Positions 26,490-53,154 of a stretch of DNA of 64,000 nt are shown here, one piece after another; position 1 is the stretch's first letter, and each line of letters opens with the position of its first letter. Under the pieces are notes generated by a model. That model searched no databases. It worked only from the letters and a program-made list of their open reading frames with translations, and was not told where the DNA came from. The stretch lies in the UHGV virus genome UHGV-0084588. One strand, written 5' to 3'. The stretch is from a virus. The position numbers and the translations under genes were made by a program.

Positions 26490-26498
26490 ACAAAAGCA

Positions 26499-26548
26499 CC
26501 TACCTCCGAAAGGAGGTAGGTTAACTTTCTTATTTTTTTCTTTTTTTA
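26499..26548. terminator. bidirectional intrinsic terminator between convergent genes
   Basis: CCTACCTCC-gaaa-GGAGGTAGG hairpin followed by a long T-tract. Confidence 0.6.
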
Positions 26549-27109
26549 AGCGCCTGGAACAATCCCAGAAGAGATATACGTTAAACCGTCAAGTTCGGTG
26601 ACTTTAATCAACTTCGAAATATCCTTACCGTCGGACGGCAGCTCTGTTAAGTACACCTCCAGCCGACCTGTCCACGCCAAAGATCTCCCATTCATGATAA
26701 TGATGGTTTTATCTCTGCTGTCCGGTGCAGCTGTTGGGTTCTCAACTTCGTCGTCGGTAATCTGTAAATTGTACTTGGTGCGAAAAAGCTGTAGTACCTC
26801 AGATACCGTAGCCGCACTAACACCCGCAACAGAAACTACAAAGTCACCTAAGAGGTGCTCTAGATCCAATCGACGATAAATAACATCGATTTTACCAAAC
26901 GTTTTCTGTTCAATAATTCCCTGGACGCTAAGTTGGGTATTTAATCGCGTAAATTGAGTTTCTGGTGTTTCTACCGCAGGAATATGTGACGGTGTGCCAA
27001 AATTCAACTTATCGATTGTAATACCTTTCTCTACCAAACCAGGATTCTTTTTTACTAATAACTCATAAACCAGTTGTTTTCCTGATTTACCTAATAGCGT
27101 ATTAGCCAT
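26546..27109 (-). CDS. hypothetical protein, co-oriented with the giant virion gene
   Basis: 187-aa ORF; last gene of the minus-strand block. Confidence 0.5.
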   Translation of the reverse strand: MANTLLGKSGKQLVYELLVKKNPGLVEKGITIDKLNFGTPSHIPAVETPETQFTRLNTQLSVQGIIEQKTFGKIDVIYRRLDLEHLLGDFVVSVAGVSAATVSEVLQLFRTKYNLQITDDEVENPTAAPDSRDKTIIIMNGRSLAWTGRLEVYLTELPSDGKDISKLIKVTELDGLTYISSGIVPGA

Positions 27110-27125
27110 TATTTCCTCTCAAACA

Positions 27126-29297
27126 TTAACGTGCTTGCGGCAAGAAGATGTTCGCGATCTGGCGTGCTGGAAGCACATCAAACGCAGAGTTGATAAAGCT
27201 GCCTTGTGACCATGCAGATGCCCAGTTCTGTGCCCAAATGCTTCCTTGGATCTTAGCACGCTCTATACCGTTCGTACGCTCGTACAACGTCGCTGCACCC
27301 AAACACGCCATAAACTCACTGAATTTATTATCGTCGTCCCAAACACCGGTGTCTGTAACGATGGGCATATACATCACACGGGACAAATCGCGGATGGTAA
27401 CATTGATATCACAAGACAGTGGAACAGAATCGCCTGGCCGCCAACCTAAACCACCAACACCGAATTGTAAAGACAAAGACGTTACGATAGCATTACGGAA
27501 CGAGAATCGGCCTTGTGAGTAACATTCCAAATAAAACGGATGAGTGAATGATTGTTTACCCGTCGCAATTGGACATACCGCGGCGATCCAAAAGGACAGC
27601 GGCACTAGAATTTCCTGGAAGATATCCAGGTCACTTCCCGACCACGCACGTAAAGGTATTGTCAAGTTAATATCGTCACCCGAGGCATCCGAACTGTCCC
27701 ACACCTCTGGGAAGTCGATGACGGATGAGTTATATAACGACATAATCCCCGTTAAATGAAGCGTATCTGCTAACCCACGCATTACGGACTTAAAGCCTGT
27801 AATTAATGAATCGACCGCGTTGAAGCCGGTTTGCCCGCCAGACAAGTTTACTTCAAGTTGACGAGCTTTTGCCGTCATTGAGTTAACTGTACTAGAAATC
27901 TCCGGCTCTTTTGTGGAGTTAGAGAACGAACGAGAGACGGTGTCCTTCCCATCGATTCTCCAGGTCACCCACTGAGAACCGTTGTAGATTTCGGACAGCG
28001 CCTGTGCTTTAATCCCTTCAATCTGTTCGCCAACCACTTTAACAAAGTCGCCGAAGAACGTCTCCATGGTCGATTCTTTGCCTTTATCCGCCCAGGACTG
28101 TATCGTATTCTGTTGTCCCTCGGTGAGGTTACTCGCATCGGCATTTTCCAAATCCTCATTCATTTTGTTTTGGATTTCTGCCGCCTGCGCCTCTAGGTCG
28201 CTTGCCGTTCCCCCAGTTTGTAACCCTGAACTAAACGCATCGAGAACCCCTTTCTCCAGTTCATCAACGCTGTTAATATCTTTACCCGACGCGTCTTTCG
28301 CCGCATAACCACCGCGTTCGGATGCGGCTAACCGTTCCATGTCTTGCAAAGAAACTTCGTAATTTCTCACATCGTCAGAATACGAAGCTGCGCCATATGT
28401 GCTATCCAAATAGAAATTTCGTATCCGCTCGGCGAGATCATCGTCACTTGAGGACTGCTTACGAAGCTCTTTTAAACGTTGATTCTGATAGTTCGCCAAA
28501 GTTTGATAACGGTTGATCATCTTAAAGACATCGAATTCACCGTCTTTTTTCCAAACCTCCGGCAACGCTTCAAACGCATCGTCGCGCGCTTTTTTGTTTC
28601 CTTTTCCATCGCCGTCTTGACTAACCTGGAAGGTACCTAAGATACCCGTAGGAACCAAACGACGATAAACAAGTTGCGTATTCAAGATGTTCTGTACAGC
28701 ACGCAAATACAGATGCATCGTCGGTTTAACGTAATAATAACGCGACGTTTGTTTATTCAACGCTGCCGCGAGAATGCGTGGAGTAATTAAAATTACCGCA
28801 AAAGCGACAGTACCCACCGTTGCCCATATCGCTGCCGCGCCGATATAACTTGCTATCGTACGGATCATTCCCGGATAGTCACCCGTACGCGCTAAATATG
28901 CTAAGTTGGAATCGTACATATTCGCAAAGAACGCGGCCATGCCCAGATATTTCGGCTTTCCGAAACGGCAATGTACGTAAAACGAATTTTGGTTAATACT
29001 TTCGTAATAATACGTCCCTAAGCGATAAGAAGCGGTTGGCATACCGTTAGCCAACGCCTTTTTCTCCGCCTCACGATTACCGGGTCGTGCAAATGCCCCA
29101 GTTGATGGGGGGTCTGCAAACCACGTAAACTGCGGAGGGCTATTAATCGCTTTACTACCGCCCATGGTCGTATCTTCAAAAGACATCATACCGTTAGAGT
29201 AGCGTCGCAAGGCCAGAAAACGTTCATCTCGGCCTTCCAACTCTCCCTTAAATAGATTTCTGACCCAGCTTGAGTCGTTAGCTGATCTAGCGTCCAC
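27126..29297 (-). CDS. hypothetical protein, possibly virion-associated
   Basis: 723-aa ORF directly downstream of the 2374-aa gene; internal hydrophobic stretch AAAIWATVGTVAFAVILI. Confidence 0.55.
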   Translation of the reverse strand: MDARSANDSSWVRNLFKGELEGRDERFLALRRYSNGMMSFEDTTMGGSKAINSPPQFTWFADPPSTGAFARPGNREAEKKALANGMPTASYRLGTYYYESINQNSFYVHCRFGKPKYLGMAAFFANMYDSNLAYLARTGDYPGMIRTIASYIGAAAIWATVGTVAFAVILITPRILAAALNKQTSRYYYVKPTMHLYLRAVQNILNTQLVYRRLVPTGILGTFQVSQDGDGKGNKKARDDAFEALPEVWKKDGEFDVFKMINRYQTLANYQNQRLKELRKQSSSDDDLAERIRNFYLDSTYGAASYSDDVRNYEVSLQDMERLAASERGGYAAKDASGKDINSVDELEKGVLDAFSSGLQTGGTASDLEAQAAEIQNKMNEDLENADASNLTEGQQNTIQSWADKGKESTMETFFGDFVKVVGEQIEGIKAQALSEIYNGSQWVTWRIDGKDTVSRSFSNSTKEPEISSTVNSMTAKARQLEVNLSGGQTGFNAVDSLITGFKSVMRGLADTLHLTGIMSLYNSSVIDFPEVWDSSDASGDDINLTIPLRAWSGSDLDIFQEILVPLSFWIAAVCPIATGKQSFTHPFYLECYSQGRFSFRNAIVTSLSLQFGVGGLGWRPGDSVPLSCDINVTIRDLSRVMYMPIVTDTGVWDDDNKFSEFMACLGAATLYERTNGIERAKIQGSIWAQNWASAWSQGSFINSAFDVLPARQIANIFLPQAR

Positions 29298-29307
29298 GTT
29301 TTACCTC

Positions 29308-29337
29308 TAAAAAAAACGGGGGTAGTTTCCTACCCCC
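29308..29337 (-). terminator. intrinsic terminator between two co-oriented minus-strand genes
   Basis: On the minus strand, GGGGGTAG-gaaa-CTACCCCC followed by TTTTTTTT. Confidence 0.55.
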
Positions 29338-29345
29338 TGTTGTTA

Positions 29346-32300
29346 TTACGCCGATTTACGACTAACGTCGAGTTGTGGCGCTGGTTGGGTTATTGACACG
29401 TTACGTGACGCCGAACCCGGAGCGGTTGACGCAGGGTTAGCCGGTCCGTTTTGCATAGCCTGTGGTCGCTGACGAAGAATTGTTACAATCTCTTTCAGGT
29501 AGCCCGCAGACTCTTTTGCAACCGCCAGCTGCTGTACGCTGATCGGATCACCGCTGTTCACTGTAGAGCCGGTCTGTGCATCGGACGTTACTGTTGGTGC
29601 AGGGCGGACTGATTTCTCCATCTGCTGTCTAGCACCTTCTTTTACTTTAGCAACATCCTCTTCGGCCAGGCCGTCAGCACGAGCGTTTTGACCCACCGTA
29701 TCTACAACAACTGACGCATCACTCGGTGTAACGTCGCCGCCAGGGCTCGGCACAGCCGGACCACCGCCCGTCGCAGCTTTAATGTCATCGGCCCCCATTG
29801 CACCTTTATCTGCTAAGGCTGCATCACGATTCGCCTCGTTCGCAGCTGGCAGGTTATCTGCCGGGCCTGTGATAGACGGATCGTTAGCAGCGCCCGCAGC
29901 GATGGCTGGGGATGACGGCATTGGCGTTACGCCTGTCGTCAAGTCTTTCACCGATGCCTGATTAGCCGCAATTGCGTTTGTTCCTACTGCACCAATCTTA
30001 CCACCCATGATGTTGAGCACTTCATCCAAACTACGCAATTTTCCATTCTTGTAGAAAATTGTGCTGTTTGCCGCGATTTGATCGGCCGATGCACCACGCG
30101 ATGACGGACCGTTCGGATCACGCTTCCATTCTTGCAGGAATTTCTTACCGCCACCTTGTCCTAAGAAGTGGTAGAGGTAAACTGCTGCACCAGGAGGATC
30201 GATGCCACCTAAATCCTTTCTGGCTTTCTCGATATTGTCACGAATATGGCGGACACCAAGCAGAGTATTCGCCCACGGGTCATACTGGTCGGTTTGCGGG
30301 ATACCGTAACGTCTAGCGTAAGCTTTCATCTGCGCACCCCAGGTATCGTTGATGAACTGGAACAAGCCAGCCGCAGAACTTCCTTTAGCTTTGATGCCGT
30401 ATCTAAGTCCTGATTCTGCTTGTGCCATTCCCAGAGCTAACGCTGGGGGAACACCCATCATCTTCGCTACATCTGTAATCAGTGCCGCAACCGCATTCAG
30501 GTTAGGCTTCAATCCGTCGCCCAACGTTGAAATTGGATACTTAGCCGCTAACGTTTTATAATCACCGTCTTGCATCTCGCCAAGCTTCACACCGAAGTTA
30601 CCGGTACTAAACGCGGCGTAATTCTTAGCTCCCATCTGACCATAAGCACCAGCCAAATCGTTTGGCGTGCCGTAATTCCCACCGTCATTCGCTGCCGGTT
30701 GAAGCAGATCGCGATAAGAGGAGGAAGTATTCATCTGTTGCCGAGGTGGTTGGTCCTTCTCGTCATCGGTCAAGAACATCTGAGTCGCACGATCTTTTCG
30801 CTGCCAGTTCACACGGAAACCAGCAGAAGGCGTAGCACGCAGCGTTTTACGTACTGCCAAATCAGCTTCCTTAGACAGTTCTTTCAGATTCTCTAACTCC
30901 GTCGCAACTGAACCAGCGTCAGTGTTAGCATCACCCCCTAACGGGTTAAACGGTACCTCCCACACCGATTGGCGAATACCCCCTTTCAGGTTGTATGCAC
31001 CACGCATCATCAGTGCGATTTCATACAAGAACCCGCCTGTAACGCGTAGGTCCATCGGATCGGCAGCAGGGACATAACGTTTCACTCCAACCACGTACGT
31101 CATGAAGACAGGTAAGAAGCGGTTATAGAACCAGTTCTTGTACCGATCTTCTTTTGGCCCACCAATAGCGTCAGGTGCAATCACCGCAATCGCACGTTTC
31201 CAGTCTCCTTTATACGTACAACTTTTCACATCAGTGTCTTGCAACACTTGACGTTCTAGGAGCGTATAGAGGTTACGGGTTGTTTGAGTAATGCTCACAG
31301 CACCATAAGCTTTCAACCTTACAGATTCCAAATCACGGAGATCGGTTTCTTTAGGTAAGCTTCTCCAGTCAACTTGAACCTGAACTTGTTCGGTGCCGTC
31401 TTCCCAACCTTCAACCTTTGCAACCTCTTTGTTGCGTTCCGCATCCGCTTGAGCCAACGCTTGGGACGATTCCGCCACAGAAGCAACTTTGTGTCCTTCG
31501 GCCACGCCGCCTGTAGCATTAACATCCTTACGTTTTTCATCACGACGCATGTTAATCGAACGAAGCACGCGTTCTTGTGCTTCAACGACTTCTTCACCTG
31601 ACAAAAACTCGGCCGGGGTAAACGTTACGAAATCCCACGCTTTAGAGAACCAACCTTGGTTAACCTTGCGGGGGTCTTCTAATGCACGGAATGCAGGTGC
31701 GTCTTTCGACATCTTCATTTTGTTAAAGATGTTCAACATGTCTGCTTTCGACACTTTCGCTGGATTACCGACGTCAGCTAACGCGATATCGTTATCCATC
31801 GATTTCAGTGCCGTAATCCAACGTAAGTAAATAGGCACAAAACGTTGTAGCATAAACGCACTAAACGCCAGCATTTCGCCTTTGTCTTCTACGTTAGTAC
31901 CAAACCCTTCGGCCAGTTTCTTCACGTCGTCACCGGACAAACCACGCAGCTGCGCTTGACCGTTCTCTGTATAAGAGATATACGGTTTCAAGTTGTCTTC
32001 TAAATAACGTGCTTTTGCACCGTCGTCGGAAGACCATTCATCGTGGTCTCTAAAACCGTACTGCGCCAATCGCATGTTATCCAGATACTGGGCATTTACA
32101 CGGGTTGCAGTTTTATACGCAAACCAAGACAGCGCAGCGCCTGCAGCGACCAAGCCAATAATCGGCCAGCCAACCGCAGTTACCACTGCAGATGCCGCTG
32201 TCGCGACAGCACTCACCGCAGGGACAGCCAAACGGGTCACAGCAAACTTACCAACGTTCCACAACGCTTTGCCTGCAAATCCAACCGGCTTGAAGATTCC

Positions 32301-35300
32301 CCATTTTGCAACTTTACCTAAGATTGAACCCACTGTGCCCAAAATACTCACAATCGGTCCTACCAACGGCAGTCCTTTAAGGAAATCCATTACCCCACGT
32401 TTACCACCTTTCTTCTCAGCCTCTTTCTTAGCCTTTTCCTCTTCCTTAGAACGACGACGGCGTCGGAAGAACTGGAAGTAATCGCGTTTTTCATCACTGG
32501 CAGGCGGCTTATTGCGTTGGCCGAACTTACTGAACATAGTTCTTAACAAACCATCCGAAGCACCTGCTTTTTCCGCAGAATCACGCATGGTGTTAAACCA
32601 TGACATTTCCTGAAGATTAACCATTCGGTTCAGGCGTTCCAGTAAAGCTGACCCAACGCTACGGGCTTTCTGTTTCCCTTTATTAATCACACGACCAGCG
32701 CTATCCATTACGGTGTCTAAGTCTTCTTTTGCCGCATCGACGATACGTGTTTTAGACACCTTGCCTCTTGCGTAGATGTGTTGACGGTAAAACTCAGCAA
32801 CATCGTCATCGCGTCCTGCTAAACGACTCTCCATTCGATAACGTGTGCCAATATCGAAACGTGGATCACGGAAAGTATCGACCATATCGCTTGCACGACC
32901 ACGGAAACGATCAAACCAACCACGTGCGGCACCGCCCCAACGAGAAAGACGATCGCCTACCGCACCGCGATAACGGGACATTCTGTCACGCATCCGACCA
33001 CGCCAATCCCGGAACCCCTGAAAATGTTCACGGAACCCTTCACGTATGTCTTTAGCACGTTGGAATAATCCTTTAACTGAGCTGGCTCCCGTATTCCGTT
33101 CCATCTGTTCTGTCCAGGTATCATCTTCTGGTTCACCTGGCAATCTCCGGTTAAGGAGTTTGTAGATACGGATTAAGATGTGGTTAGTTTTACGGCCGTT
33201 CGACCATGAGAACACACTAAACCCACCACCAGAACCCCCTTCCTTACGGTTCTGCCACCAACGTGTCAGAGGGTTATCAGAAGCCAACTCTTTGAGCTTC
33301 TCAAACCCGCGTTTTGCATTGTTCCACAAACGTGCTGGCATTCCCGTTACACGGGAAATCATGCTTTGTAAACGGGTTTTCTCTGCGCCCTCTGGAACCT
33401 CATTTAACCACTCACGTGCTTTCTCGAACAACGAAGCCGCTTTAGGTGAAATGAAGCCTAAAAGTTTCTTCGGTAAAGTCACAGCTTTGTTTACCGCCGT
33501 TCCTGCTTTCCCAGAAATGTACTGGAAAAGCGCTTGAACTTTACCGCCTTTGTAGAATCGCAGTTTACCTGCGGCAGCCAAATCAGCAGCAGATAAGATT
33601 AAATTACCCGCTTCATCGACAATATCACGTCCCAGTTTAATATCGTCGAGGGTTTTAAGTTGAATCAGCTTCTCAGTTTTCGGGTCAGCCTGGTAATATT
33701 CCCCAGCTTCTAAACGACTTCCTTGTAATACGACGTTGCCACGTTCATCGTAAATATCACGAACACCTAAAACGCCTTTACCGAAAGCTACAGCAGAATT
33801 CCAACCTGTCGATAGAGTACCTGTTACTAACCCTTTCAGTCGGCTAAATACACCGGGTCCTTCGGAGGAGCCGCCTGAGAATTTCCCACGGATAAAACCA
33901 CCTAAAGCCTGCAGACGATCTTTCCCACGTAGGAACAGATTCTTACCAAAACGCCCTACACCTGAACCGGTATCCCAAAGCACCCCAGCCCAACGGCGTA
34001 ACAAGCCTGTCTCGCCTAGCACAATACGTTTGCGTTTACGACGACGTTTACGACCCGAGTCACTCGAACTTTCAGTTTCGTCACCGTCATCACGACTACC
34101 GCCTAAACTGGCTAGGAGAATACCTTCCTCATCCATGTTCTTAACGTGTTTGAGGATATCTTGCACTGTGCTAGATTCGGGCTGTTTACGTACAGCATCA
34201 ATCAAACGGTCGAATTGCTGTTCCAACCCGGCGTTCGTATCTGGACGACTGCTTAATAGTTCAACAAAGTTAGTGGATTTCTCTCCATAAAGTACCGCAG
34301 CGAGTTGACGTGCGCTTAAACCGCGACCACGACCACCTTTTCCACCGCCACGCACATTGGACAGTTCTTTGTCTTCAAAGCTCGGCTCTGCACCTGCACC
34401 CATCCGACGCAAGTAATCACCCAGCGCAGAACCGTTTTGCAATTTACGCTGAATCTCTTGCTCACGGGTTAACGAACGTCCAGAGCGGGTCTTACCCATC
34501 GACAGGTCATTAAATAACGTATAGGGATCGTTAATGTCCTTATCGACCTCGAAAATGTCTTTCTTCGCATCGTATTTAAAAATACCGGAATCACGAAGTG
34601 CATTCTCGCCGTAAATCACAGACGCAGCATCAACAGTGTCCTGACGTGCGCGAATCGTTGACTGGATAGCGGCGATTTTGTTTGAAATCGCGTTGCTCAA
34701 TTCATGGTGTCCACCAACCAGTTCCGCAGAACGGGCTTCTAAAACACCCTGAATCGCTTCCACAGCGTTTGCGTTCATGTACCGATACATGTGCATCGGG
34801 TCTTTCAATAAAGACCCTACATCGAACGCTTTCCCTTCCGAGGCACGGGATTCGATGTAGTCTGCTAACGCCTGACGTGTTTTCCGATCGAGCGTTTTAT
34901 CTTTATCGATAAAGTCGACTGTATCGTTGATGTAAGTCTGTAAACGTTTACGCTGATCGTCATTAGCAACCGCTTTACGAACACGATTACCAATAACTTT
35001 ACGATCCACCATACCGCGTGTGGTCAGGTCATAAACCTGATCGTGGTGTTCACCATATCCACGACGAATAGATTTGTTAATCTCGGACAGTAACGTCGGA
35101 ATAACTTCAGTGATGCTGAGGTAAGCTTTACGATCGAATTTCGCCGCCGCAGAAAGAGATTCCGCAGAGCGATCGTCTAATGCTAACGTTTCGCGACGTA
35201 GCGGGTTAACCAATCCCAATTCGTGCATTAGTCGAAACAGATCAGCTAACGGGCCGCTTGTTTCTCCTGCTATTGCTGAGTTAGAAATAGACGATAAATT

Positions 35301-36470
35301 TCCAAAACCATACTTCGCCAACTGAAGGCGTTTCATGACTTCTGGATTTTTCTCCAACTCGCCACGAGTCCAGTTTTGTAGACGTTCGATCTGGGGTTGT
35401 AAGAGCCGTTTTGCTAACCAACCACCTGCAAAACCTGCCGCTTTATTACGCGAGTTTGTATTACGACGGTCAGGAGACAACGATGAGCTGTCCGACATGT
35501 CAAAGTCGTCTTCCTGGGCCATCCCTAGAACTTGTTCTAGAATCCCACGACCATCGCTAAAGACGTTCGAGATTTTCTTCTTCGCGTTCTCACGAATCTG
35601 GCTAATGAAATTGTCTGCGTAATGTAAGGGGTTCATCCACTCCGCAGCTTTACGTTTTACATTAGCCCAACGAATTTCAGAAAACTCTTCCTTCGCGTAG
35701 TCTGGCAGTGCTGTGTTCTTAACGATGGCTTCTAATGCCGGTGTATTGCGTGCAAACTCGTCTTGTTTGAGTTTCGCAATATCCTGCAAAGCAAACAATG
35801 TCCGGTATTGCAGCTCTAACTGCTTACGCTGAACATTCAACAACACGCCCCGACTTAAGCTAGTCGTTAAGTTGACGTCTTTTGCAATACCGATTACTGT
35901 CTGGAACAGTGCGTCGGACTTCATGTCCTTAATCGTGTCACGCAAGCGGTCTTCAACCATCCCTTCTTGCGTTTCACGTTGCTGGTCCGCCGTTTGCGGT
36001 GCACCTGAGAACACGCTGTCCAGCTCACGATCCATCAACGCTTGTTTAGGATCGTAATTCCCATAGTCGATTTGATCGTTACGTGCCCACTTGTCGATTT
36101 TCCGTGTTACGGATTCCGGTAAATACCGTTTCAGTGTTGGGCCTAACTGTCTCGCTTGCATCTTAACGACGCGAGACGTCTTTTCAATCTCGTCTTTCGT
36201 ATGGGCCAGAATGTCTTGACCTGCAGCTTTAACGTTTTGATAGCCTTCGTAGGCTTCTGCCGCAGGTTTAGGCATCCCTTTTAAAATAACCTGATCACGT
36301 TTGTTTTCGGGCCAGATAGTCGACAACGCCGACTTACGGGCAGCACGAAATGTGTCCATGACCGGGTTACGCGATTGGTCTTGTTGACGAGGGGGCTCAT
36401 CAAAATCGTCCCAGTCGTCCATGTTATCAAGATCGATTTCATCGAAATCATCTTTACCTTTTTTAGCCAT
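29346..36470 (-). CDS. giant virion protein (2374 aa) with C-terminal lytic transglycosylase domain
   Basis: Acidic N-terminus (DDFDEIDLDNMDDWDDFDE); long hydrophobic Ala/Val/Gly-rich membrane-like region; C-terminal region with AQAESGL, AAGLFQF and YLYHFLGQGG resembling the SLT signature; overall like phiKZ gp181-type proteins. Confidence 0.8.
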   Translation of the reverse strand: MAKKGKDDFDEIDLDNMDDWDDFDEPPRQQDQSRNPVMDTFRAARKSALSTIWPENKRDQVILKGMPKPAAEAYEGYQNVKAAGQDILAHTKDEIEKTSRVVKMQARQLGPTLKRYLPESVTRKIDKWARNDQIDYGNYDPKQALMDRELDSVFSGAPQTADQQRETQEGMVEDRLRDTIKDMKSDALFQTVIGIAKDVNLTTSLSRGVLLNVQRKQLELQYRTLFALQDIAKLKQDEFARNTPALEAIVKNTALPDYAKEEFSEIRWANVKRKAAEWMNPLHYADNFISQIRENAKKKISNVFSDGRGILEQVLGMAQEDDFDMSDSSSLSPDRRNTNSRNKAAGFAGGWLAKRLLQPQIERLQNWTRGELEKNPEVMKRLQLAKYGFGNLSSISNSAIAGETSGPLADLFRLMHELGLVNPLRRETLALDDRSAESLSAAAKFDRKAYLSITEVIPTLLSEINKSIRRGYGEHHDQVYDLTTRGMVDRKVIGNRVRKAVANDDQRKRLQTYINDTVDFIDKDKTLDRKTRQALADYIESRASEGKAFDVGSLLKDPMHMYRYMNANAVEAIQGVLEARSAELVGGHHELSNAISNKIAAIQSTIRARQDTVDAASVIYGENALRDSGIFKYDAKKDIFEVDKDINDPYTLFNDLSMGKTRSGRSLTREQEIQRKLQNGSALGDYLRRMGAGAEPSFEDKELSNVRGGGKGGRGRGLSARQLAAVLYGEKSTNFVELLSSRPDTNAGLEQQFDRLIDAVRKQPESSTVQDILKHVKNMDEEGILLASLGGSRDDGDETESSSDSGRKRRRKRKRIVLGETGLLRRWAGVLWDTGSGVGRFGKNLFLRGKDRLQALGGFIRGKFSGGSSEGPGVFSRLKGLVTGTLSTGWNSAVAFGKGVLGVRDIYDERGNVVLQGSRLEAGEYYQADPKTEKLIQLKTLDDIKLGRDIVDEAGNLILSAADLAAAGKLRFYKGGKVQALFQYISGKAGTAVNKAVTLPKKLLGFISPKAASLFEKAREWLNEVPEGAEKTRLQSMISRVTGMPARLWNNAKRGFEKLKELASDNPLTRWWQNRKEGGSGGGFSVFSWSNGRKTNHILIRIYKLLNRRLPGEPEDDTWTEQMERNTGASSVKGLFQRAKDIREGFREHFQGFRDWRGRMRDRMSRYRGAVGDRLSRWGGAARGWFDRFRGRASDMVDTFRDPRFDIGTRYRMESRLAGRDDDVAEFYRQHIYARGKVSKTRIVDAAKEDLDTVMDSAGRVINKGKQKARSVGSALLERLNRMVNLQEMSWFNTMRDSAEKAGASDGLLRTMFSKFGQRNKPPASDEKRDYFQFFRRRRRSKEEEKAKKEAEKKGGKRGVMDFLKGLPLVGPIVSILGTVGSILGKVAKWGIFKPVGFAGKALWNVGKFAVTRLAVPAVSAVATAASAVVTAVGWPIIGLVAAGAALSWFAYKTATRVNAQYLDNMRLAQYGFRDHDEWSSDDGAKARYLEDNLKPYISYTENGQAQLRGLSGDDVKKLAEGFGTNVEDKGEMLAFSAFMLQRFVPIYLRWITALKSMDNDIALADVGNPAKVSKADMLNIFNKMKMSKDAPAFRALEDPRKVNQGWFSKAWDFVTFTPAEFLSGEEVVEAQERVLRSINMRRDEKRKDVNATGGVAEGHKVASVAESSQALAQADAERNKEVAKVEGWEDGTEQVQVQVDWRSLPKETDLRDLESVRLKAYGAVSITQTTRNLYTLLERQVLQDTDVKSCTYKGDWKRAIAVIAPDAIGGPKEDRYKNWFYNRFLPVFMTYVVGVKRYVPAADPMDLRVTGGFLYEIALMMRGAYNLKGGIRQSVWEVPFNPLGGDANTDAGSVATELENLKELSKEADLAVRKTLRATPSAGFRVNWQRKDRATQMFLTDDEKDQPPRQQMNTSSSYRDLLQPAANDGGNYGTPNDLAGAYGQMGAKNYAAFSTGNFGVKLGEMQDGDYKTLAAKYPISTLGDGLKPNLNAVAALITDVAKMMGVPPALALGMAQAESGLRYGIKAKGSSAAGLFQFINDTWGAQMKAYARRYGIPQTDQYDPWANTLLGVRHIRDNIEKARKDLGGIDPPGAAVYLYHFLGQGGGKKFLQEWKRDPNGPSSRGASADQIAANSTIFYKNGKLRSLDEVLNIMGGKIGAVGTNAIAANQASVKDLTTGVTPMPSSPAIAAGAANDPSITGPADNLPAANEANRDAALADKGAMGADDIKAATGGGPAVPSPGGDVTPSDASVVVDTVGQNARADGLAEEDVAKVKEGARQQMEKSVRPAPTVTSDAQTGSTVNSGDPISVQQLAVAKESAGYLKEIVTILRQRPQAMQNGPANPASTAPGSASRNVSITQPAPQLDVSRKSA

Positions 36471-36499
36471 AACGTTTAATCCGTATCAGGAGATTTAGC

Positions 36500-38119
36500 G
36501 TGAATAAACTTAATTGGGTTGACTTTTATCTGCTCAATGTAAACAAGTCTCTTGTGTCGCGATTACGACCCGTCACGACCACGGATACTTTCCAGGGGTT
36601 AACAAAAAACTTTCACCCCGAAGGTCTTTACTCTACAGAGATTTTTGGACTCACGGGTAGTGAAGCGCGAGACTCTACATTCTCTTATATCGATATTAAA
36701 CTCGATATCATTTCGCCGACAGTGTGTTTGGCGTTATTCCAACTCAAACAACTCTACGAAGAAATTTGTTCTGGAAAACGCTACGCAACGTGGAGCGAAA
36801 AAGAAAAAGATTTCGAACCGGCCTTGCCGGGAGACCCAGGCGCAGATACCGGTTTTAACTTCTTCCTCAGTCACTATAACGATTTAAAACCTAAGCGTAA
36901 CGAGTCCCTACAACGTGACGAAACCGTGGATTTCTTTTTGAAATTCCGCCCCGTCAGTCTTAGTCGATACGTTCTCGTGTTACCCGCGGGTTTACGCGAT
37001 TTAGTAATTCGGCAAGATGGCAGAGAGCAAGAAGAAGAAATCGGTGGGATGTATCGTCGGTTGGTATCTCTCGCCAGGGCAATCCCTGACCGAGCAACCC
37101 GTGTCGAATTAACTAACCCCGTACGCTGGAAACTTCAACAAACCTTCAATGATATCTGGATGTATTTCTTTAACATCCAAGACGGTAAAGGGGGTTTCCA
37201 ACGTCGTAAAGTGACGTCTCGTAAATTAATGAACGGGACACGTAACGTATTGTCCTCGTTCTCGACGGGGTCTAAATGCATGGGTCGTGAAGACGCTATT
37301 CGTCCTACCGACACCAAAATTGGTTTATACCAGGGTTTAAAAGCATTACTCCCTGTTGCGCAGTACCAAATACGTGAACGTTACCTCGGTAACATCCGTG
37401 CTGGTGATGGCAACCTTTACGGCGTAAACACCAAAACCCTTAAACGTGAATTCTTGGAAGTAGGTGGTCGTGTATACGACACCTTTACCACCGACGATGG
37501 GATTGAATCCTTAATCAACCGAATGGAAGCTCGCGAGCTTCGCCATCAGCCGATTATGTTGGATGACACCCACTACATTGCGTTGGTTTACCAAGACACC
37601 AAACATTTTAAGGTGTTCTACGATATTGAAGAACTTCCTAAAACGTTTGACCGAAAATTCGTTCACGGTATGACACTCGTCGAATTGCTTTATTTGTCGG
37701 GCTACGAACTTTGGAACGATTATTTCGGTTTCGTTACACGTTATCCCGTTACAGGCCGAGGCTCGACGTATTCATCGACCATAAGATTGGAGACCACCAC
37801 GTCATCTTTATATTTAAAAGAACTGGAAGATGACTGGGAAACTGAAAAACCCCGAGGGGCTATCAGTTACCCTGACCGGTCGGTTCCTACCTTCGTTGAG
37901 TCTATGGCACCACACCCTTCACGCCTAGGTGGCTTAGGGGGTGACTATGACGGTGATACCGGCTCGTTTAACGCGCCTATGTCCCAGGAAGCGCTCGAGG
38001 AAAACCGGAACTGGATACACTCGAAAAACTACTGGTTCGATTCTGATGGGAACTTTAAAATCAATCCTATCAACAACGTGATTAAACGTGCAACGCAAGC
38101 GTTATTAAAGAACCCATAA
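36500..38119 (+). CDS. multisubunit-type RNA polymerase beta-prime-like subunit, N-terminal half
   Basis: GTG start after [18 protein letters not shown]...MYRRLV parallels bacterial beta-prime VLPVLPPDLRPLV...[29 protein letters not shown] parallels [43 protein letters not shown] parallels the catalytic [20 protein letters not shown]. Confidence 0.75.
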   Translation: [539 protein letters not shown]

Positions 38120-38128
38120 GGCTAAGCA

Positions 38129-41100
38129 ATGCTGCTCATTAAACAGTTTAACCAACGCTTCTCGGTGCGTAAAACCGACGAGTTTGGTAATCCGAGGATT
38201 ATCCCGCTCGAGAAGCTACAGATACCGCGTGGTTCTGTACTCCACGTCATTGATCTCGACCAGGTGGTATTAGCACCGCCTGCAACGCTTGAAATTATTC
38301 AACCGTTAGAAAAACCTGCTCAGGTTCGCCACCACTTTAAATTACCGGAAGACGGTATTAGTGGGCATCCTCGTAACAAGCCTGTACAGGGACAAGAACG
38401 TGCTATCTTTGCCTACCACCGTGCAAACCGTCCGATGCGTCGTCTTACCTCAGACGAACTGGTTCGCAAAGACTTAAAAGTTCTCCTGATCGAGAACTAC
38501 ACGCCGATGTTATCGCACTACTACTATCCTGACACCCAGTTAGCCTGGTACGATAGATTGCGTAACATCCAACTATTGATGATTAACCAGTTCAAATACG
38601 ACACGCAAGAATACATGCGTCAGAACTATTTCGTTATTGAACTGGGTTCGGCATTGCCTTCGTTCCAGAAGTTTCAAACAACCTATAACGACCGTGTTAA
38701 GAGCAAGATTGAGAAGTTCCAGGACTTCAACTTGCTGTGGTTATTAGAATTGTTTGCTTGGGCTTATGGAAAACAATCTGATTCCTTATTCGCGGGAATG
38801 GATTTAACTCAGCTGTCACGAATGAACTTTATCTTCACCCACAACACGGGCTTTACGTCCATGAACATGGGTGTTGTAGAGAAAATGCGTAAGTCTTCCG
38901 GCGGCCGTTTAAGTGACGACCAAATGGCGCGGATGTTCTACCGTACGCTGGTGCGTGTAATGACACAAGCACCGTCTAACGCGTACGAAGCGGAGTTCCT
39001 AACGCCTGAAGGTGACGAACGTGTTTTCCTTAAAGACGTCGAAGAAGAAACCGTTGATGTTGTCGACGACGATGACGTTGTTAATGACGCTGTGGTGGAA
39101 TCCGATAACACCTTCGATGAAAAAGAAGACGTTGTTATTGAAGAACCGAAGGAAGACGTCAAACCGACGACAATTGTTGTCGAGAAAGTCATTCCGCATG
39201 ACGAAATTATTAAACAGGAAGCACAACGCTTAGCTGAAGCGGGCCGCTTAAGTTCTAAAGCATATCAGTTCCTGTCTGAATCGTCTAAACGTTTCGTTCA
39301 GCTGCCTAACCCGTATAACCCGAAAGAAACCTACGGGGAAGCGCTTACTGTTCACGAAAAGGATATCGTCGTTAAAGCTGAACCGAAAAAAGTTCAGCGG
39401 CTTGTTACCGACGAAGGGTGGGCAGAGAACGTCACCGACCAGATGGTGAAACAGTACAACCAGACCATGATGACCAAGGACGTACTGGCGGCGGTCGCCA
39501 GTTCACAACGTTTGGGTCTGGCAGTTCACAACCACACGGTGGAAAAAGAAGTTTCTGTTACAGGGACTATCGAACACCACACTTTACGTGTTCAGCCGGT
39601 CGGCGGTGAACCAACAACCGTTCGCTTCTCCATCCCAGGCTTGACCGAGGACGGTACTTGGGTAGCTAACGGTGTCGAATACACCATGCGTCGACAACGT
39701 GTGGACTTACCGATTCGTAAAGTTGCGCCGGATACAGTCGCGCTGACTACCGCTTACGGTAAAAACTTTGTCCGTCGTAGTGATAAGGTCGCGAACGATT
39801 ACGGTCGTTGGTTAACCAACGCGATTATCACACGTGCTGTTGATCCGACAAACACCGAAGTCACCGATGCACGTTTAGCAAATGTGTTCGATCCTACGCA
39901 ACATCTGCCGCGTCAGTATACGGAGATTGCACGCCGTATTGCCAGCTTTAATGCAAACGGCTATATGTGGAACTTCGACTACAAAGAAGCCGTTAACTTC
40001 TTTAACGACGAGCAGCTCAGAGACGCCGATGCTGCCAAACTTCTGCCGGTGGCGAAACGTCCGCGTAGTGAAACAATCCTGGCAATGGATGACAAATCCA
40101 TGCTTTACGGTGTGAACGGAAACAAAGTTGAGCCAGTGGGAACTATCGCAGAGGTACTGGGCTTTAATAGCCAGAAAGTGCCTCGCGAAATGACCGAGCT
40201 GTCTTTGATGGGTAAATCTTTGTCGCTTGGTTTTATCTTCTCGTTCTATCTTGGACTCCAGGGAATGTTGAAACATTTCGGTATCCAATACGAGTTGGTT
40301 CCTGCAGGTCAACGTGTTGATAAGAATGCCTACGACAGTATTATTCGACTACAAGACTGTAAACTTTTAGTTACTTGCGATAACGATCAACAGAAGATGA
40401 TTCTGCATGGTTTGGATCGCTATCTCAAACACCTGGTTGCTTATACCGAATCAGAAGCAGACCGTGAAGACATTTACCTGAACTTATTACGTGATGCAGA
40501 TGGCCTAACACCACGGTACATCAACGAGCTGAAACAGATGCGGTCCGCGTTTGTTGACGACATGCACGCACGTATCCTCAGGAAAATGGGTGAACCAGAA
40601 ACCTTTATTGGTTTGCTGGAACGTTCTAACGAACTGTTACAAACTGACCACTCTTTACCAGAGATTAACGGCGACGAAATGATGTTCTTAGGAAATCAGA
40701 GGATTGCCTACCACATCTATACCGCGATGGTCAGAGCGATGCGTAACTACAATAACGCACCGGGTAGTAACCGTAAGTTCGAACTGACGCAAGACATGGT
40801 TTGGGGTGCAATTAACTCCGACCCGTCGGTACTTTTGGCACCAGGCGCTAACCCTATTCAGTCGATTAAAGAAAAAGACGTTATTACGATGGGGGGTACA
40901 GGCGGTCGTAATCGTAAAACGATGGTCTACCACACGCGTGAATTCCAACCCAGTGATATCGGGATAGTCTCGGGTAACACCGTAGATAACGGGGACGTAG
41001 GTATTACTGCTTTCGTCACCAATAACCCACGTTTTGACACCGTTGACGGTACTACGTTTAAACGTGAAGAGAAAACCCCGAAACCAAGCGACACCCTTTC

Positions 41101-42295
41101 GTTTATTGACGGGTTAGTACCAGATACGTTAATGGACGACGCAAAGCGTCAAAACTTCGTTGGGATTCAGTTAGGTTCTGCCACCAGTTGTATTGGGGCA
41201 ACCACAACCCCGTATCGTACTGAACAGGAGAAATTCGTCGCACACCGTACTTCGGTGAAACATGCACGCGTTATTGATAAAGCAGGTAAGATTACTGGTC
41301 TGTCGAAAGACCACATTGAAATTACGTACGAAGATGGAAGTAAAGAAGCCTTTCCTCTAGGGCGCTGGTTCGGCCCCCACGAAGGTACCTTCTATCCGCA
41401 CACCTTGGTAACACGCTGGAAAGCCGGTGATAAGCTCCCGGCCGGAGCAGTGATTACGTACAACGAGCAACACTTTGAACCTGATATTTACGATCCTACT
41501 CAGGTTTCCTGGAAAAACGGGGTACTGGCTACCGTTGCTTTATTAGAAGCTGAAGAAGTTATCGAAGACTCCAATGCAATTTCTGAACGGTTCGCGAAGA
41601 AAATGGTGGGGCAGGTAACAAAGCTGAAAGAAGTGACGATTAACAGCAACCAGATGCTTCTGGAAATCGTGAATGAAGGAGACCACGTAGACGTCGATAC
41701 AATCCTATGCACGTTTACTGACGACTTGACAGGCGATATGAGTGCCTTTAGTCAGGAAGCAGCCGCAACGTTGCAAAGTTTAAGTTCGTACGCACCTCGT
41801 GCAGGGGTACGTGGTATCGTGGATAAGATCGAAGTGGTGTATCACGGTGAAACCGAAGACATGACACCAAGCCTTGCTGAACTGGTGCGTAAATACGACA
41901 GAATTCGTCGTAAAGCCGCTTTGGCAGTTGGGCGAGGTGATCCGGTTTCAGGCAGTGTAAACGGCGACTACCGTGTCGAAGGTGTACCATTAGCCTTTAA
42001 CTCACTTTGTGTTCGATTCTTTATTACACACGACGTTGAGATGGCCGCTGCGGATAAGATGGTTATTGCTAACCAGCTAAAAACCACCGTACAAGAAGTC
42101 ATGTACGGCGACAACAAAACAGAGGATGGTGATGACCTGGACGTGTTGTTCGGTCGTGATTCTGTCGATGCGCGTATCGTAGGTTCAATCCAACGTATCG
42201 GTACCGCGAATGCTGTAGGTGAACAAGCCGGGATTCTCATCGGGCGTATACTCGATGGGGAAGCTGTGCCTGATTTACCCGCGACACTTAAATAA
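38129..42295 (+). CDS. multisubunit-type RNA polymerase beta-like subunit
   Basis: C-terminal third shows beta-like blocks in order: HTREFQPSDIGIV...FVTNNPRFDT, WKAGDKLPAGAVI, EDSNAISERF (compare EDSILVSERV), PRAGVRGIVDKIEVVYHG (compare PNGVSGTVIDVQVFTRDG), AADKM (compare PGDKMAGRHGNKG); N-terminal two-thirds not assignable. Confidence 0.55.
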   Translation: MLLIKQFNQRFSVRKTDEFGNPRIIPLEKLQIPRGSVLHVIDLDQVVLAPPATLEIIQPLEKPAQVRHHFKLPEDGISGHPRNKPVQGQERAIFAYHRANRPMRRLTSDELVRKDLKVLLIENYTPMLSHYYYPDTQLAWYDRLRNIQLLMINQFKYDTQEYMRQNYFVIELGSALPSFQKFQTTYNDRVKSKIEKFQDFNLLWLLELFAWAYGKQSDSLFAGMDLTQLSRMNFIFTHNTGFTSMNMGVVEKMRKSSGGRLSDDQMARMFYRTLVRVMTQAPSNAYEAEFLTPEGDERVFLKDVEEETVDVVDDDDVVNDAVVESDNTFDEKEDVVIEEPKEDVKPTTIVVEKVIPHDEIIKQEAQRLAEAGRLSSKAYQFLSESSKRFVQLPNPYNPKETYGEALTVHEKDIVVKAEPKKVQRLVTDEGWAENVTDQMVKQYNQTMMTKDVLAAVASSQRLGLAVHNHTVEKEVSVTGTIEHHTLRVQPVGGEPTTVRFSIPGLTEDGTWVANGVEYTMRRQRVDLPIRKVAPDTVALTTAYGKNFVRRSDKVANDYGRWLTNAIITRAVDPTNTEVTDARLANVFDPTQHLPRQYTEIARRIASFNANGYMWNFDYKEAVNFFNDEQLRDADAAKLLPVAKRPRSETILAMDDKSMLYGVNGNKVEPVGTIAEVLGFNSQKVPREMTELSLMGKSLSLGFIFSFYLGLQGMLKHFGIQYELVPAGQRVDKNAYDSIIRLQDCKLLVTCDNDQQKMILHGLDRYLKHLVAYTESEADREDIYLNLLRDADGLTPRYINELKQMRSAFVDDMHARILRKMGEPETFIGLLERSNELLQTDHSLPEINGDEMMFLGNQRIAYHIYTAMVRAMRNYNNAPGSNRKFELTQDMVWGAINSDPSVLLAPGANPIQSIKEKDVITMGGTGGRNRKTMVYHTREFQPSDIGIVSGNTVDNGDVGITAFVTNNPRFDTVDGTTFKREEKTPKPSDTLSFIDGLVPDTLMDDAKRQNFVGIQLGSATSCIGATTTPYRTEQEKFVAHRTSVKHARVIDKAGKITGLSKDHIEITYEDGSKEAFPLGRWFGPHEGTFYPHTLVTRWKAGDKLPAGAVITYNEQHFEPDIYDPTQVSWKNGVLATVALLEAEEVIEDSNAISERFAKKMVGQVTKLKEVTINSNQMLLEIVNEGDHVDVDTILCTFTDDLTGDMSAFSQEAAATLQSLSSYAPRAGVRGIVDKIEVVYHGETEDMTPSLAELVRKYDRIRRKAALAVGRGDPVSGSVNGDYRVEGVPLAFNSLCVRFFITHDVEMAAADKMVIANQLKTTVQEVMYGDNKTEDGDDLDVLFGRDSVDARIVGSIQRIGTANAVGEQAGILIGRILDGEAVPDLPATLK

Positions 42296-50173: not shown

Positions 50174-50214
50174 TACCTACCTCCATGACGGAGGTAGGTA
50201 AACTTATTTTTTTT
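50174..50214. terminator. bidirectional intrinsic terminator between convergent genes
   Basis: CTACCTACCTCC-atgac-GGAGGTAGGTA hairpin with T-rich runs on both sides. Confidence 0.6.
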
Positions 50215-50217
50215 TGC

Positions 50218-51093
50218 TTAACGAAGCTGATTTGCCATCTGTTCGTCGGACACAGAACGATAACCGCCAGCCGTAGCATCGACGTCTGGGTTGATACCGT
50301 TGGTCTGTTGAGACGGAGTAAGCCACAGTTTGCGTTCGTAAGGACGCAGACCGTAAAGCTTCATGCGCTCCAGTTCTTTCTGAGCTGCCTGCATCGGGCC
50401 CCAACCTGTCCATTGCTGGGAGGTGAAGGTGATGGACAGTTCGTTGGTCTGAGGACCGGTGTTCGGGTCACGTTCACCGATATCCTGACCGTTAGATTCA
50501 GGAGCCATGTTCGTCAGCCACCAAGCGTTCTGCGGTTTACGCTGATACGCATCCGGTTCGAAATACAGCACGGTCATGCTGTACATATCCGGCAGGTGAT
50601 CTGGCACGTTCGGGTTGATTGCCGCCAGACCAGGGTGGCCTGTGTGCGGATCACAAACACCGTAAACCAACCACGCCCAGAGCATGTTCTGATACACTTT
50701 ACCCAGTTTATCCGGGGTAGTGTGTGTAACAGAAGACAGTGCTTCCGTTACCAGACCAGCTTCGTACTGAACGCGGTTGTTACGTCCCTGCTGGGTCTGT
50801 ACGTACTCAGCACTCAGGGATTTGTCCAGACCGGTAATCGTGGTGTGAACCTCGATGAACGATTTGATTGCCTGACGCCACAGTTGTGGGTTCGGCATGT
50901 AATCAACCCAACGAGGGAATTCCATCACACGTGCGATTACGTTACGACGCAGACGGTGGGCGTTGGTAACGAACTTACCAACCTGGCCGACCGGACCGTT
51001 TTGACCAGACGAGAAGGGGTTAACCATATCGTACTGGCCACCATCGACGTGGAGGCCCTGGTCAGGTAAAATCATGCGTTCTTTGATAGACAT
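50218..51093 (-). CDS. hypothetical structural protein, possibly tail tube
   Basis: 291-aa ORF directly downstream of the 685-aa ORF; functional guess rests on size and order only. Confidence 0.45.
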   Translation of the reverse strand: MSIKERMILPDQGLHVDGGQYDMVNPFSSGQNGPVGQVGKFVTNAHRLRRNVIARVMEFPRWVDYMPNPQLWRQAIKSFIEVHTTITGLDKSLSAEYVQTQQGRNNRVQYEAGLVTEALSSVTHTTPDKLGKVYQNMLWAWLVYGVCDPHTGHPGLAAINPNVPDHLPDMYSMTVLYFEPDAYQRKPQNAWWLTNMAPESNGQDIGERDPNTGPQTNELSITFTSQQWTGWGPMQAAQKELERMKLYGLRPYERKLWLTPSQQTNGINPDVDATAGGYRSVSDEQMANQLR

Positions 51094-51096
51094 CTA

Positions 51097-53154
51097 TTAG
51101 ACCTCCGTACTGTTGCGACGATAAACTTTGATCGTCGTGTTGAACTGCGACAACAGTACACCGCCTTCAGCTTTAATATCCAGCGTGATAGAGTAGCCGT
51201 TGGCTTTATCGTCCGCTGTCATATACGCACTCGGGGTAATGTCGGCAATATTATCCAGGCGACCTTCCAAACGCTCGGTGATTTTGTTTTCAATCATTTT
51301 CGCGCGTTCGTCGTCCGTCATACGGCTTTCACCGGACATATCTGCCCAAACCTGATCACTGACGCGATAAACGTAAGTCAGGATAAAGTTAAACAGTGCA
51401 TTGTTCAGCACTGAACGCTCTTCGCTATAGATGGACTGGATAGCTGGGATGAACAAACGATAGTAGTCGCGGGAACGTGCGGTAACCAGGGACACATCCC
51501 AGTCGGATGCGTAAACCTCATTACCTTTCCACGGCATACTCAGATCGTACAGATCTTCGATGATCGTCTCTTCACCACGGCTGAAACGATACGCCGGTTT
51601 TGCACGTCCTTCACCGGAACCGAGATACTTCGAGAAGAAGTTCGCAATGCTATAACACATCGGAACCGGTTTCTTGTAGCTCGAGTTACGGATGAATGCA
51701 GACTGGCCAGTAATCATACCACGGCACGCTGGGGTACCGTAATAGGACGACTCAGGCACAGACGTAATCATTTCGATCAGCGCTGTCTTCACGTTCTCTT
51801 CGGTTTGTAGGTCATTACGACCTTCGTTATAAACGTGAGTACAGAGTGTCAGGAACGTGTTGCGAGAACGACCAATGAAATTGGTCAGCACTTTCTTGGT
51901 ATCCATGCTAAAGCCGGAGTCCCAGAAACAGCCTAACGAATATTTCAGTTCGTTATCGTAACGGACTTTACCGCCGTCCGGGAACTGGCTCATCTCACGA
52001 CGCACAAGTTTGTCGTAAGCATCATTACCCATCGTCCCGTCACTACCGCCCTGCAGATAGTGAATGTTAGAAGCAGAAAAGACAACTTTACCCACTTCAT
52101 CAGATGGGCTAACTTGCAGACCATCGTACATTTGACCGGTTAAATCCAGACCGCCGAAGATATCAACCATATACGGATCGGTGATCGCTGGTTTCGCATT
52201 CTGAATTTTAGACTGTGCCAGTTTCAGAACAGTTTCCAGGTTTTCACGGTAAATGTAGAACTCTTCGAAAGGACCGTAGTCCGGCAGACCGCCGATGTCT
52301 GGCATCGTCTGACGATAGGCATCTGGAACAACGACTTCGAAGTCCAGTTGGGTAGCCATCGGCTGATAGTATGCATCGGGCTTGAAGCTAACATTGATGC
52401 TGCTAAGACCTTTAAGGGTCTTCCAAATTACCGGCGATGTAACCCCTGCTAAGGTTTCAAACCATTGCAGTGCGTACATACGTCCACCTACGTTGGTCTG
52501 ATAAGCAGACGCGATAGATGGGCTGGATTTTTCGTTCAGCGGAACCAGTTTAAAACCGAAACCGTTGACATCAGCACCCGCGTACGGGCCTTTAATGTCG
52601 AAGATCGGATAGAGCTTTGATTTCGTGCTGCTGGTTTCGTCGGTCATTGTCCCTTCAGTAACCACACCTTTTTTCAGGGTGCTTACATCTTCGACAACTT
52701 GCAGACGGAAAACCACTTTCAAGCCATCAACGTCTTCTTTCTTCTTCGGCTTACCATTACTTTCGTACTGGATAATGCCGTTCACACGCTCGTATGAAGG
52801 AACTTTGGTTTCGAGGACGTCAGCCACCAGACGGATAGCTGCGGTTTTCGCATCATCCGGTACCAGACGCTGATACATACACTCGTTACCATTGGCATTA
52901 AACATCGCCTGGAAGGGTGTGTTGAACGTCGCGTAATCGCCACGCAGGTCGAACAAATCACGACCAAGCAGAGACAATGCATTATCCCCGGATAACGGGA
53001 ACGCCTCGTCGTCTACCCCGCGTGATGCAAAGGTGAAGATCAGCGGCTTATGAATCGGATCACCCGTGGGGGTCCGGACAAGCTCAGGGACAGAGTTATC
53101 CTGCCACCCTTGCTTGTTATTCAATGGCGCGCCGTTTCGTGGAATAAAACTCAT
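51097..53154 (-). CDS. hypothetical structural protein, possibly tail sheath
   Basis: 685-aa ORF followed by a roughly 290-aa ORF, the usual sheath-then-tube arrangement; no diagnostic motif. Confidence 0.45.
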   Translation of the reverse strand: MSFIPRNGAPLNNKQGWQDNSVPELVRTPTGDPIHKPLIFTFASRGVDDEAFPLSGDNALSLLGRDLFDLRGDYATFNTPFQAMFNANGNECMYQRLVPDDAKTAAIRLVADVLETKVPSYERVNGIIQYESNGKPKKKEDVDGLKVVFRLQVVEDVSTLKKGVVTEGTMTDETSSTKSKLYPIFDIKGPYAGADVNGFGFKLVPLNEKSSPSIASAYQTNVGGRMYALQWFETLAGVTSPVIWKTLKGLSSINVSFKPDAYYQPMATQLDFEVVVPDAYRQTMPDIGGLPDYGPFEEFYIYRENLETVLKLAQSKIQNAKPAITDPYMVDIFGGLDLTGQMYDGLQVSPSDEVGKVVFSASNIHYLQGGSDGTMGNDAYDKLVRREMSQFPDGGKVRYDNELKYSLGCFWDSGFSMDTKKVLTNFIGRSRNTFLTLCTHVYNEGRNDLQTEENVKTALIEMITSVPESSYYGTPACRGMITGQSAFIRNSSYKKPVPMCYSIANFFSKYLGSGEGRAKPAYRFSRGEETIIEDLYDLSMPWKGNEVYASDWDVSLVTARSRDYYRLFIPAIQSIYSEERSVLNNALFNFILTYVYRVSDQVWADMSGESRMTDDERAKMIENKITERLEGRLDNIADITPSAYMTADDKANGYSITLDIKAEGGVLLSQFNTTIKVYRRNSTEV

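Follow-up and report, generated by a model that had tools for sequence, protein, structure and literature searches.

A predicted tape-measure-like giant tail protein of the SPN3US gp239 and phiKZ gp181 family, with a lytic transglycosylase domain and a hydrophobic hairpin, in the virus genome UHGV-0084588

We analyzed a stretch of 64,000 nucleotides of the virus genome UHGV-0084588 (here called the window), centered on the largest of its genes, which lies on the minus strand at positions 29346 to 36470 and encodes a protein of 2374 amino acids. By sequence comparison, this protein is a full-length ortholog of SPN3US gp239 and a whole-length homolog of phiKZ gp181. The gp181/gp239 family is already known, and the protein is an added member that is 60% identical to its counterpart in the nearest isolate. 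We consider it likely that, in an SPN3US-like jumbo myophage of the chimallivirus type, the gene encodes a giant tail protein that resides inside the tail, resembles a tape measure, is expelled on infection, cuts murein, and inserts into a membrane. An earlier reading made from the sequence alone had proposed that this gene, the largest of the window, encodes a virion protein of phiKZ gp181-type architecture. The open reading frame (ORF) is as that reading described it, and the second largest ORF of the window encodes 1388 residues. The parts of the gene, in the order of the encoded protein, are as follows.

29346..36470, minus strand: complete gene for the giant tail lysin or tape-measure-like protein; 2374 residues, 262 kDa, isoelectric point (pI) 9.4; ATG start; stop codon at 29346-29348
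36381..36470, minus strand: acidic N-terminus, residues 1-30 (MAKK..DDFD..D.DDWDDFDEPP), with D15 and P26 invariant in 32 homologs
32388..36470, minus strand: N-terminal ~1360 residues, candidate ruler or tube-lumen part; mostly helical, without a Pfam family or fold match
34023..34058, minus strand: polybasic run, residues 805-816 (contains RKRRRKRKR), within a Gly-rich segment of predicted disorder
33531..33758, minus strand: beta-rich module, residues ~905-980, with the tandem motif RDI[YV]DexGNvvL..L.aG..Y
32115..32387, minus strand: hydrophobic region, residues 1362-1452, in which a basic amphipathic loop (AKWGIFKP...) joins a helix (1366-1387) to a hydrophobic 38-residue stretch (1414-1451) with an invariant GWP
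31656..32108, minus strand: middle helical domain 1, residues 1455-1605, among the best-conserved parts
30876..31361, minus strand: middle helical domain 2, residues 1704-1865, with invariant W1780, R1784, F1785, L1786, and P1787
30636..30833, minus strand: disordered linker ahead of the lytic domain, residues ~1880-1945
29988..30491, minus strand: SLT (family-23 lytic transglycosylase) domain, residues 1994-2161; codon of the catalytic Glu2019 at 30414-30416
30405-30425, 30354-30374, and 30150-30179, within the SLT domain: motifs AQAESGL (residues 2016-2022), AAGLFQF (2033-2039), and YLYHFLGQGG (2098-2107)
29349..29975, minus strand: acidic, Ala/Pro/Gly-rich tail of low complexity, residues 2166-2374; pI 4.7 over these last 209 residues

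The protein was 59.5 to 59.9% identical over 100% of its length to the homologs of SPN3US and Erwinia phage Asesino, with a full-length identity of 59.8% to SPN3US gp239 (YP_009153533, 2372 residues). It matched phrog_3201 from end to end (2088 bits), and a protein search returned weaker full-length matches in many Erwinia jumbo phages. Pairwise identity to phiKZ gp181 (2237 residues, "tail-associated endolysin") was ~24% over about half of the length. A profile built from 32 homologs matched the same protein with an E value of 2.4e-97 in segments comprising the N-terminus, the beta repeat, the hydrophobic region, and all of the C-terminal third, and it matched Goslar_00232 with an E value of 1e-92. 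The likeness to gp181 that the sequence-only reading had seen in the architecture is true whole-length homology. Searched against all Protein Data Bank (PDB) sequences, where the gp181 sequence is not present, the 32-homolog profile returned SLT-type enzymes only, and NCBIfam held no family for the 2374-residue protein. A near-identity DNA search of phage genomes gave a single match, of 140 nt at 76%, which leaves the phage without a close sequenced isolate. Sequences more than 61% identical were found only in Logan read-archive assemblies, in which three clusters of proteins were 96 to 99% identical. As a side observation, the giant tail protein is less conserved relative to SPN3US (60%) than are the adjacent subunits of the virion RNA polymerase (vRNAP; 86% and 77%).

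The surroundings of the gene are conserved as well. The neighbors that bear on this comparison are listed below.

36471..36499, no strand: divergent intergenic spacer of 29 nt, up to the vRNAP subunit genes
36500-38119, plus strand: vRNAP beta-type subunit, 539 residues (phrog_2986, E value 7e-234), 86% identical to SPN3US gp240
38129-42295, plus strand: vRNAP beta-type subunit, 1388 residues, 77% identical to SPN3US gp241
27126..29297, minus strand: putative baseplate spacer gene, 723 residues; SPN3US gp238 ortholog (63% identity) and phiKZ gp182 homolog (E value 3e-35)
26546..27109, minus strand: DUF7941 tail protein, 187 residues (DUF7941 E value 2e-22); SPN3US gp237 ortholog (55%) and last gene of the minus-strand tail block

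SPN3US and phiKZ share this gene order, in which the vRNAP subunit genes (gp180 in phiKZ) point away from the giant gene and the gp238/gp182 and gp237 homologs come after it. In Goslar the divergence from vRNAP is kept and the downstream gene is of comparable size, and a near-identical metagenomic contig has the full gene order of the window. The protein shows two marks of membership in the gp181/gp239 giant tail protein family (PHROG 3201), namely, homology that extends beyond the lytic domain, over ~2200 to 2500 residues, and a conserved gene context. In comparison with SPN3US gp239, the position of the hairpin, the SLT domain, the C-terminal motif, the flanking genes, and the 29-nt divergent spacer are all the same; the two proteins differ in ~40% of their residues, and gp239 carries the label "tail fiber protein" in GenBank. 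In comparison with phiKZ gp181, the whole-length profile homology, the C-terminal lytic transglycosylase domain, and the synteny are shared, whereas gp181 has more copies of the beta motif and a much weaker hydrophobic region.

Experimental data place the SPN3US ortholog in the tail. SPN3US gp239 (259 kDa) has been named the tail tape measure protein (PMC10052503; PMC5105663; PMC5694885). It yielded 521, 595, and 594 peptide-spectrum matches in wild-type virions versus 0, 4, and 4 in tailless heads (means of 570 and 2.7), and its normalized ratio in tailless, DNA-filled heads was 0.0066 (PMC10052503 Table S2). In the same table, gp238 and gp237 are classified as "Tail," and the vRNAP subunits gp240 and gp241 as "Head." The proposal of a virion protein is borne out by these data for an ortholog with 60% identity. 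The term "ejection protein," which the sequence-only reading had also used, does not fit, since in this phage group it usually denotes head-packaged cargo and the ortholog is a tail protein. In published phiKZ data, orf181 is essential, with zero transposon insertions over 6,714 bp. Muralytic activity of the C-terminal domain of phiKZ gp181 was measured by Briers et al. 2008, as summarized in PMC5380687.

The resemblance of the C-terminal region to SLT-family enzymes, which had been noted from three motifs, was confirmed. All three motifs lie within the claimed interval of 30150-30460, and Pfam SLT (PF01464) matched residues 1999-2085 with 30.8 bits, above the gathering threshold of 21.3. The domain matched phiKZ gp144 (PDB 3bkh) with an E value of 1e-18, and the family profile did so with an E value of 2e-41. 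In the alignment to gp144, Glu2019-Ser2020, the E-S motif with which the first core helix ends, corresponds to Glu115-Ser116, of which Glu115 is catalytic, and Tyr2098 corresponds to Tyr197. The role of Tyr197 in gp144 was reportedly addressed by Fokine et al. 2008. Glu2019 is kept in at least 90% of the 32 homologs, and the exceptions have a GH19 domain instead. The domain was modeled with a lysozyme-like, all-alpha fold, and fold searches of the models returned lysozyme-like or generic helical matches only. Judged from its residues and predicted fold, the SLT domain is intact and catalytically equipped. Lytic transglycosylases of this class cut MurNAc-GlcNAc bonds and leave 1,6-anhydroMurNAc, and in this comparison muralytic activity has been measured only for the phiKZ gp181 domain. 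The closest structural relative of this domain, gp144, is itself a different kind of protein: a stand-alone enzyme of 260 residues with an N-terminal peptidoglycan-binding domain, located in the phiKZ virion as a neck "wedge" of six copies between whisker, terminator, and sheath (PDB 9xps; PMC13250141).

The lytic module of the family is a swappable cassette. Most members have SLT. A GH19/chitinase-like variant is present in Goslar_00232 (L005 418-7176; annotated "putative chitinase," COG3179) and in one metagenomic clade; homolog P0041 has GH19 at the corresponding position, and precomputed Pfam matches assign the same family to P0042, P0044, and P0045. Among distant homologs, P0110 combines glucosaminidase and VanY, and others include extra CHAP or VanY domains, with P0087 among the variants.

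The lytic domain is flanked by two regions of a different character. The linker ahead of it has a pLDDT (predicted local distance difference test score) of 25-30 and a conservation of 13%, and it is a candidate tether or processing site. The tail behind the domain ends with a conserved amphipathic helix (residues ~2318-2340) and then TQPxPxLxVxRK with an invariant R2371. This helix and motif form a candidate hub-binding anchor, as the C-terminal ends of T5 pb2 and of the 80alpha tape measure protein suggest by analogy (PMC10038345).

A long hydrophobic stretch at approximately 32100-32400 had also been claimed, and it was located at nt 32115-32387 (residues 1362-1452). The sole 19-residue Kyte-Doolittle windows with values of at least 1.6 in the whole protein fall at residues 1366-1387 and 1414-1451, with a peak of 2.0, and basic residues stand on both sides of the region, which is predicted to form two or three membrane-spanning helices. 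Nearly all of 113 homologs have a hydrophobic stretch at the equivalent place, about 55 to 62% of their length, and the Pro of the GWP motif is invariant among homologs. Because the position is kept to this extent, together with the invariant Pro, the stretch is not a chance feature. An exhaustive search with residues 1340-1900 returned 414 clusters, almost all of proteins of 2100 to 2800 residues in which the relative position of the match is the same. The two middle helical domains that follow were predicted with confidence (pLDDT 85-90, with ~88 for the second in AlphaFold2) and include some of the protein's best-conserved residues. A fold search with both domains (residues 1455-1605 and 1704-1865) returned no known fold. 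No role has been assigned to the hairpin or to the ~500 residues of conserved domains without a recognized fold.

The N-terminal part comprises residues 1-1361. Its first 100 residues have a net charge of -6, and a D/E-rich motif at residues 7-25 is conserved, in agreement with the acidic N-terminus described from the sequence. An AlphaFold2 model of residues 1-1200, based on 44 homologs, contained 64% helix at low confidence (mean pLDDT 57), with very long helices at residues 36-420, a confidently folded region at ~350-690, and Gly-rich/polybasic disorder at ~690-900. The beta-rich module was modeled as strands with a pLDDT of ~70. Its tandem motif occurs in two copies here and, as multiple profile matches indicate, is repeated more often in phiKZ gp181 and in the Goslar homolog; many homologs of 2450 residues have an extra copy of ~80 residues that is absent from the 2374-residue protein. 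A Pfam scan at E values up to 10 gave nothing meaningful for residues 1-1200, 1455-1957, and 2171-2374.

These parts suggest how a tail-internal protein of this kind might work. The tail tube would contain a few copies, probably three or six, whose C-terminal motif docks in the baseplate hub/spacer and whose mostly helical ~1360 N-terminal residues extend up the lumen, so that the protein would serve as an assembly scaffold or "tape measure." Once the sheath has contracted and the spike is lost, the C-terminal third would be the first part to exit; the SLT domain, on a flexible tether of ~65 residues, would cut glycan strands locally, and the hydrophobic hairpin would insert into a host membrane and help to form or anchor a conduit for DNA and head cargo. 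We infer the position in the lumen, the docking of the C-terminus in the hub/spacer, and the membrane insertion by the hairpin from the arrangement of these parts. Tape measures are a class defined by function and not a single homologous family. Two features expected of a tape measure are present: the gene is adjacent to a gp182-type spacer gene, and the C-terminal helix and TQPxPxLxVxRK are conserved. The phiKZ tube lumen is ~68 Å wide and spans 43 rings of 37.73 Å (PMC13250141), and with these phiKZ figures six full copies were estimated to fill ~32% of the lumen volume and could fit.

The closest parallel that has been worked out is T5 pb2. This tape measure has a hydrophobic stretch of 46 residues (two transmembrane helices) and a cleavage site, and the hub cup holds its C-terminus; it is expelled on receptor binding, has fusogenic and muralytic activities, and has been proposed to form a membrane channel (PMC10038345). 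Both proteins have the same order of parts, that is, a helical ruler, a hydrophobic region of ~46 to 90 residues that could form transmembrane helices, a muralytic domain, and a hub-docking C-terminus (PMC10038345), if the helical and C-terminal parts of the 2374-residue protein are read as proposed here. In contrast, pb2 shows no detectable sequence homology, has 1219 residues, belongs to a siphophage without a contractile sheath or spike, carries a metallopeptidase rather than SLT, and is cleaved after R1127.

Several observations weigh against a lumenal, tape-measure-like protein. No direct evidence places any family member in the tube lumen, and neither gp181 nor a tape measure is mentioned in the texts of the two 2026 papers, the phiKZ atlas (PMC13250141) and the Goslar structure. 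In phiKZ gp181 the hydrophobic region is weak, with a maximum Kyte-Doolittle value of 1.25. The N-terminal AlphaFold2 model is of low confidence, and a crude home-made heptad scan (not COILS or MARCOIL) gave no window above shuffled controls, so that canonical coiled coil was not found; the coiled-coil-like regions claimed in the sequence-only reading are borne out in part, by the helical content predicted at low confidence. The ruler comparison, a weak test with two phages only, is as follows.

phiKZ: 43 tube rings; 2237 residues, ~1290 of them before the hairpin
Goslar: 46 tube rings; 2252 residues, ~1250 of them before the hairpin

Length does not follow ring number between these two phages, and 2237 residues for a tube of ~1620 Å is about twice a ruler of 1.5 Å per residue. 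Because there is no proportionality between length and rings, we do not claim tape-measure function as demonstrated, and "tape-measure-like" is meant by analogy, not by proof.

The same lack of scaling would suit a tail component that is not a lumenal ruler, namely, a surface or needle-associated lysin in or under the outer baseplate that degrades the wall from a position outside the tube. Such a location would also accommodate a protein much of which consists of folded domains rather than simple coiled coil, large parts of the peripheral baseplate are unmodeled in phiKZ and Goslar, and gp181 appears in reviews as a "needle-like cell-puncturing device" (PMC5380687). In phiKZ, spike, tip, and hub have since been assigned to gp164, gp163.1, and gp101 (PMC13250141), so the older view of gp181 as a needle is superseded, and an identity as the spike was rejected on the same grounds. 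A conserved hydrophobic region of 90 residues would need shielding on a virion surface, the gene adjoins that of the central spacer ring, and the literature on these phages names no other candidate for a tape measure. In symmetrized maps, tape measures within the lumen commonly escape detection, as is the case for T5 pb2 (PMC10038345). On balance, we regard an external lysin as rather unlikely.

Two further explanations start from the size and annotation of the protein. A very large protein with an SLT domain and hydrophobic segments, encoded next to the genes of head-packaged vRNAP subunits and matched in its SLT region by podophage "internal virion proteins," recalls T7 gp16, an SLT-bearing protein of the internal core that would be ejected before the DNA and build a trans-envelope channel. 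The SPN3US ortholog is nearly absent from tailless DNA-filled heads (the ratio of 0.0066 given above), and the neighboring vRNAP subunits are retained in them (PMC10052503). Podophage internal virion proteins and transglycosylase PHROGs match residues ~1985-2260 only, with no wider homology, and T7 gp16 differs in being located in the head, in having its SLT domain at the N-terminus, and in lacking homology outside SLT, whereas the ortholog of the 2374-residue protein is in the tail. A head-packaged ejection protein is accordingly very improbable. The name "tail fiber protein," found in PHROG 3201 and many GenBank records, has annotation alone in its favor. No fiber, beta-helix, or receptor-binding domain was found in the Pfam scan, in either AlphaFold2 model, or in the fold searches; the 2374-residue protein has a hydrophobic hairpin in its interior as well as a lytic domain, phiKZ tail fibers are assigned to gp131 paralogs, and the SPN3US and phiKZ groups use the name tape measure. 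We give almost no credence to a tail fiber. The tail-internal, tape-measure-like protein described above is the reading that we retain; it corrects the widespread "tail fiber" label and places the largest gene of an uncultured SPN3US-like phage in an experimentally characterized family.

In infections by nucleus-forming jumbo phages, the host inner membrane gives rise to a membrane-bound "EPI vesicle," in which the injected genome is first enclosed. An additional role of the tail-internal protein could be sought here: the hairpin and the two helical domains (residues 1362-1865) might be a phage-supplied membrane component that inserts into the inner membrane at the tube tip and organizes or pinches off this vesicle. 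We consider this a long shot. Our search of the literature on gp181 and the EPI vesicle or injected proteins found no link and nothing that excludes one. Such a role, if true, would go beyond those of ruler and lysin.

The family merits attention as the largest protein of these virions, essential in phiKZ and passed over in the recent cryo-electron microscopy accounts of phiKZ and Goslar. Glu2019, the GWP motif of the hairpin, and the terminal motif with R2371 are ready targets for mutagenesis, and SPN3US has an amber-mutant genetic system.

The gap to the divergently oriented vRNAP gene, for which 29 bp had been claimed, is exactly 29 nt, at 36471-36499. It is of equal length in SPN3US, and of the 53 positions that comprise the spacer and 12 nt of each gene, 37 are identical. 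The spacer has room for both ribosome-binding elements, and the promoters of the two divergent genes must therefore lie in the opposite coding sequence. A scan for sigma-70 promoters found sites to be rarer than in shuffled sequence and was uninformative, as the phage uses its own RNA polymerases; Rfam and tRNA scans of the window gave no matches. Two hairpins were found at the other end of the gene and of the tail block.

29318..29337, minus strand: strong terminator-like, G+C-rich hairpin (8-bp stem) followed by a T-run, 9 nt past the stop codon of the 2374-residue gene and ahead of the next tail gene
26498-26521, bidirectional: second hairpin, which closes the minus-strand tail block

The 723-residue protein encoded downstream has no Pfam family, and from its homology the ORF at 27126-29297 can be annotated as a baseplate spacer. 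Its phiKZ homolog gp182 forms a hexameric, 24-stranded beta-barrel ring that serves as the baseplate spacer, with the tube initiator gp88 on one side and the hub gp101 on the other (PMC13250141).

Elsewhere in the window, two overlapping ORFs of ~290 residues on opposite strands, 50185-51069 (plus) and 50218-51093 (minus), adjoin the sheath gene at 51097-53154. The plus-strand member of the pair is a shadow ORF; the minus-strand member alone has a family match, to phrog_3185 (virion structural protein), and likely encodes the tube.

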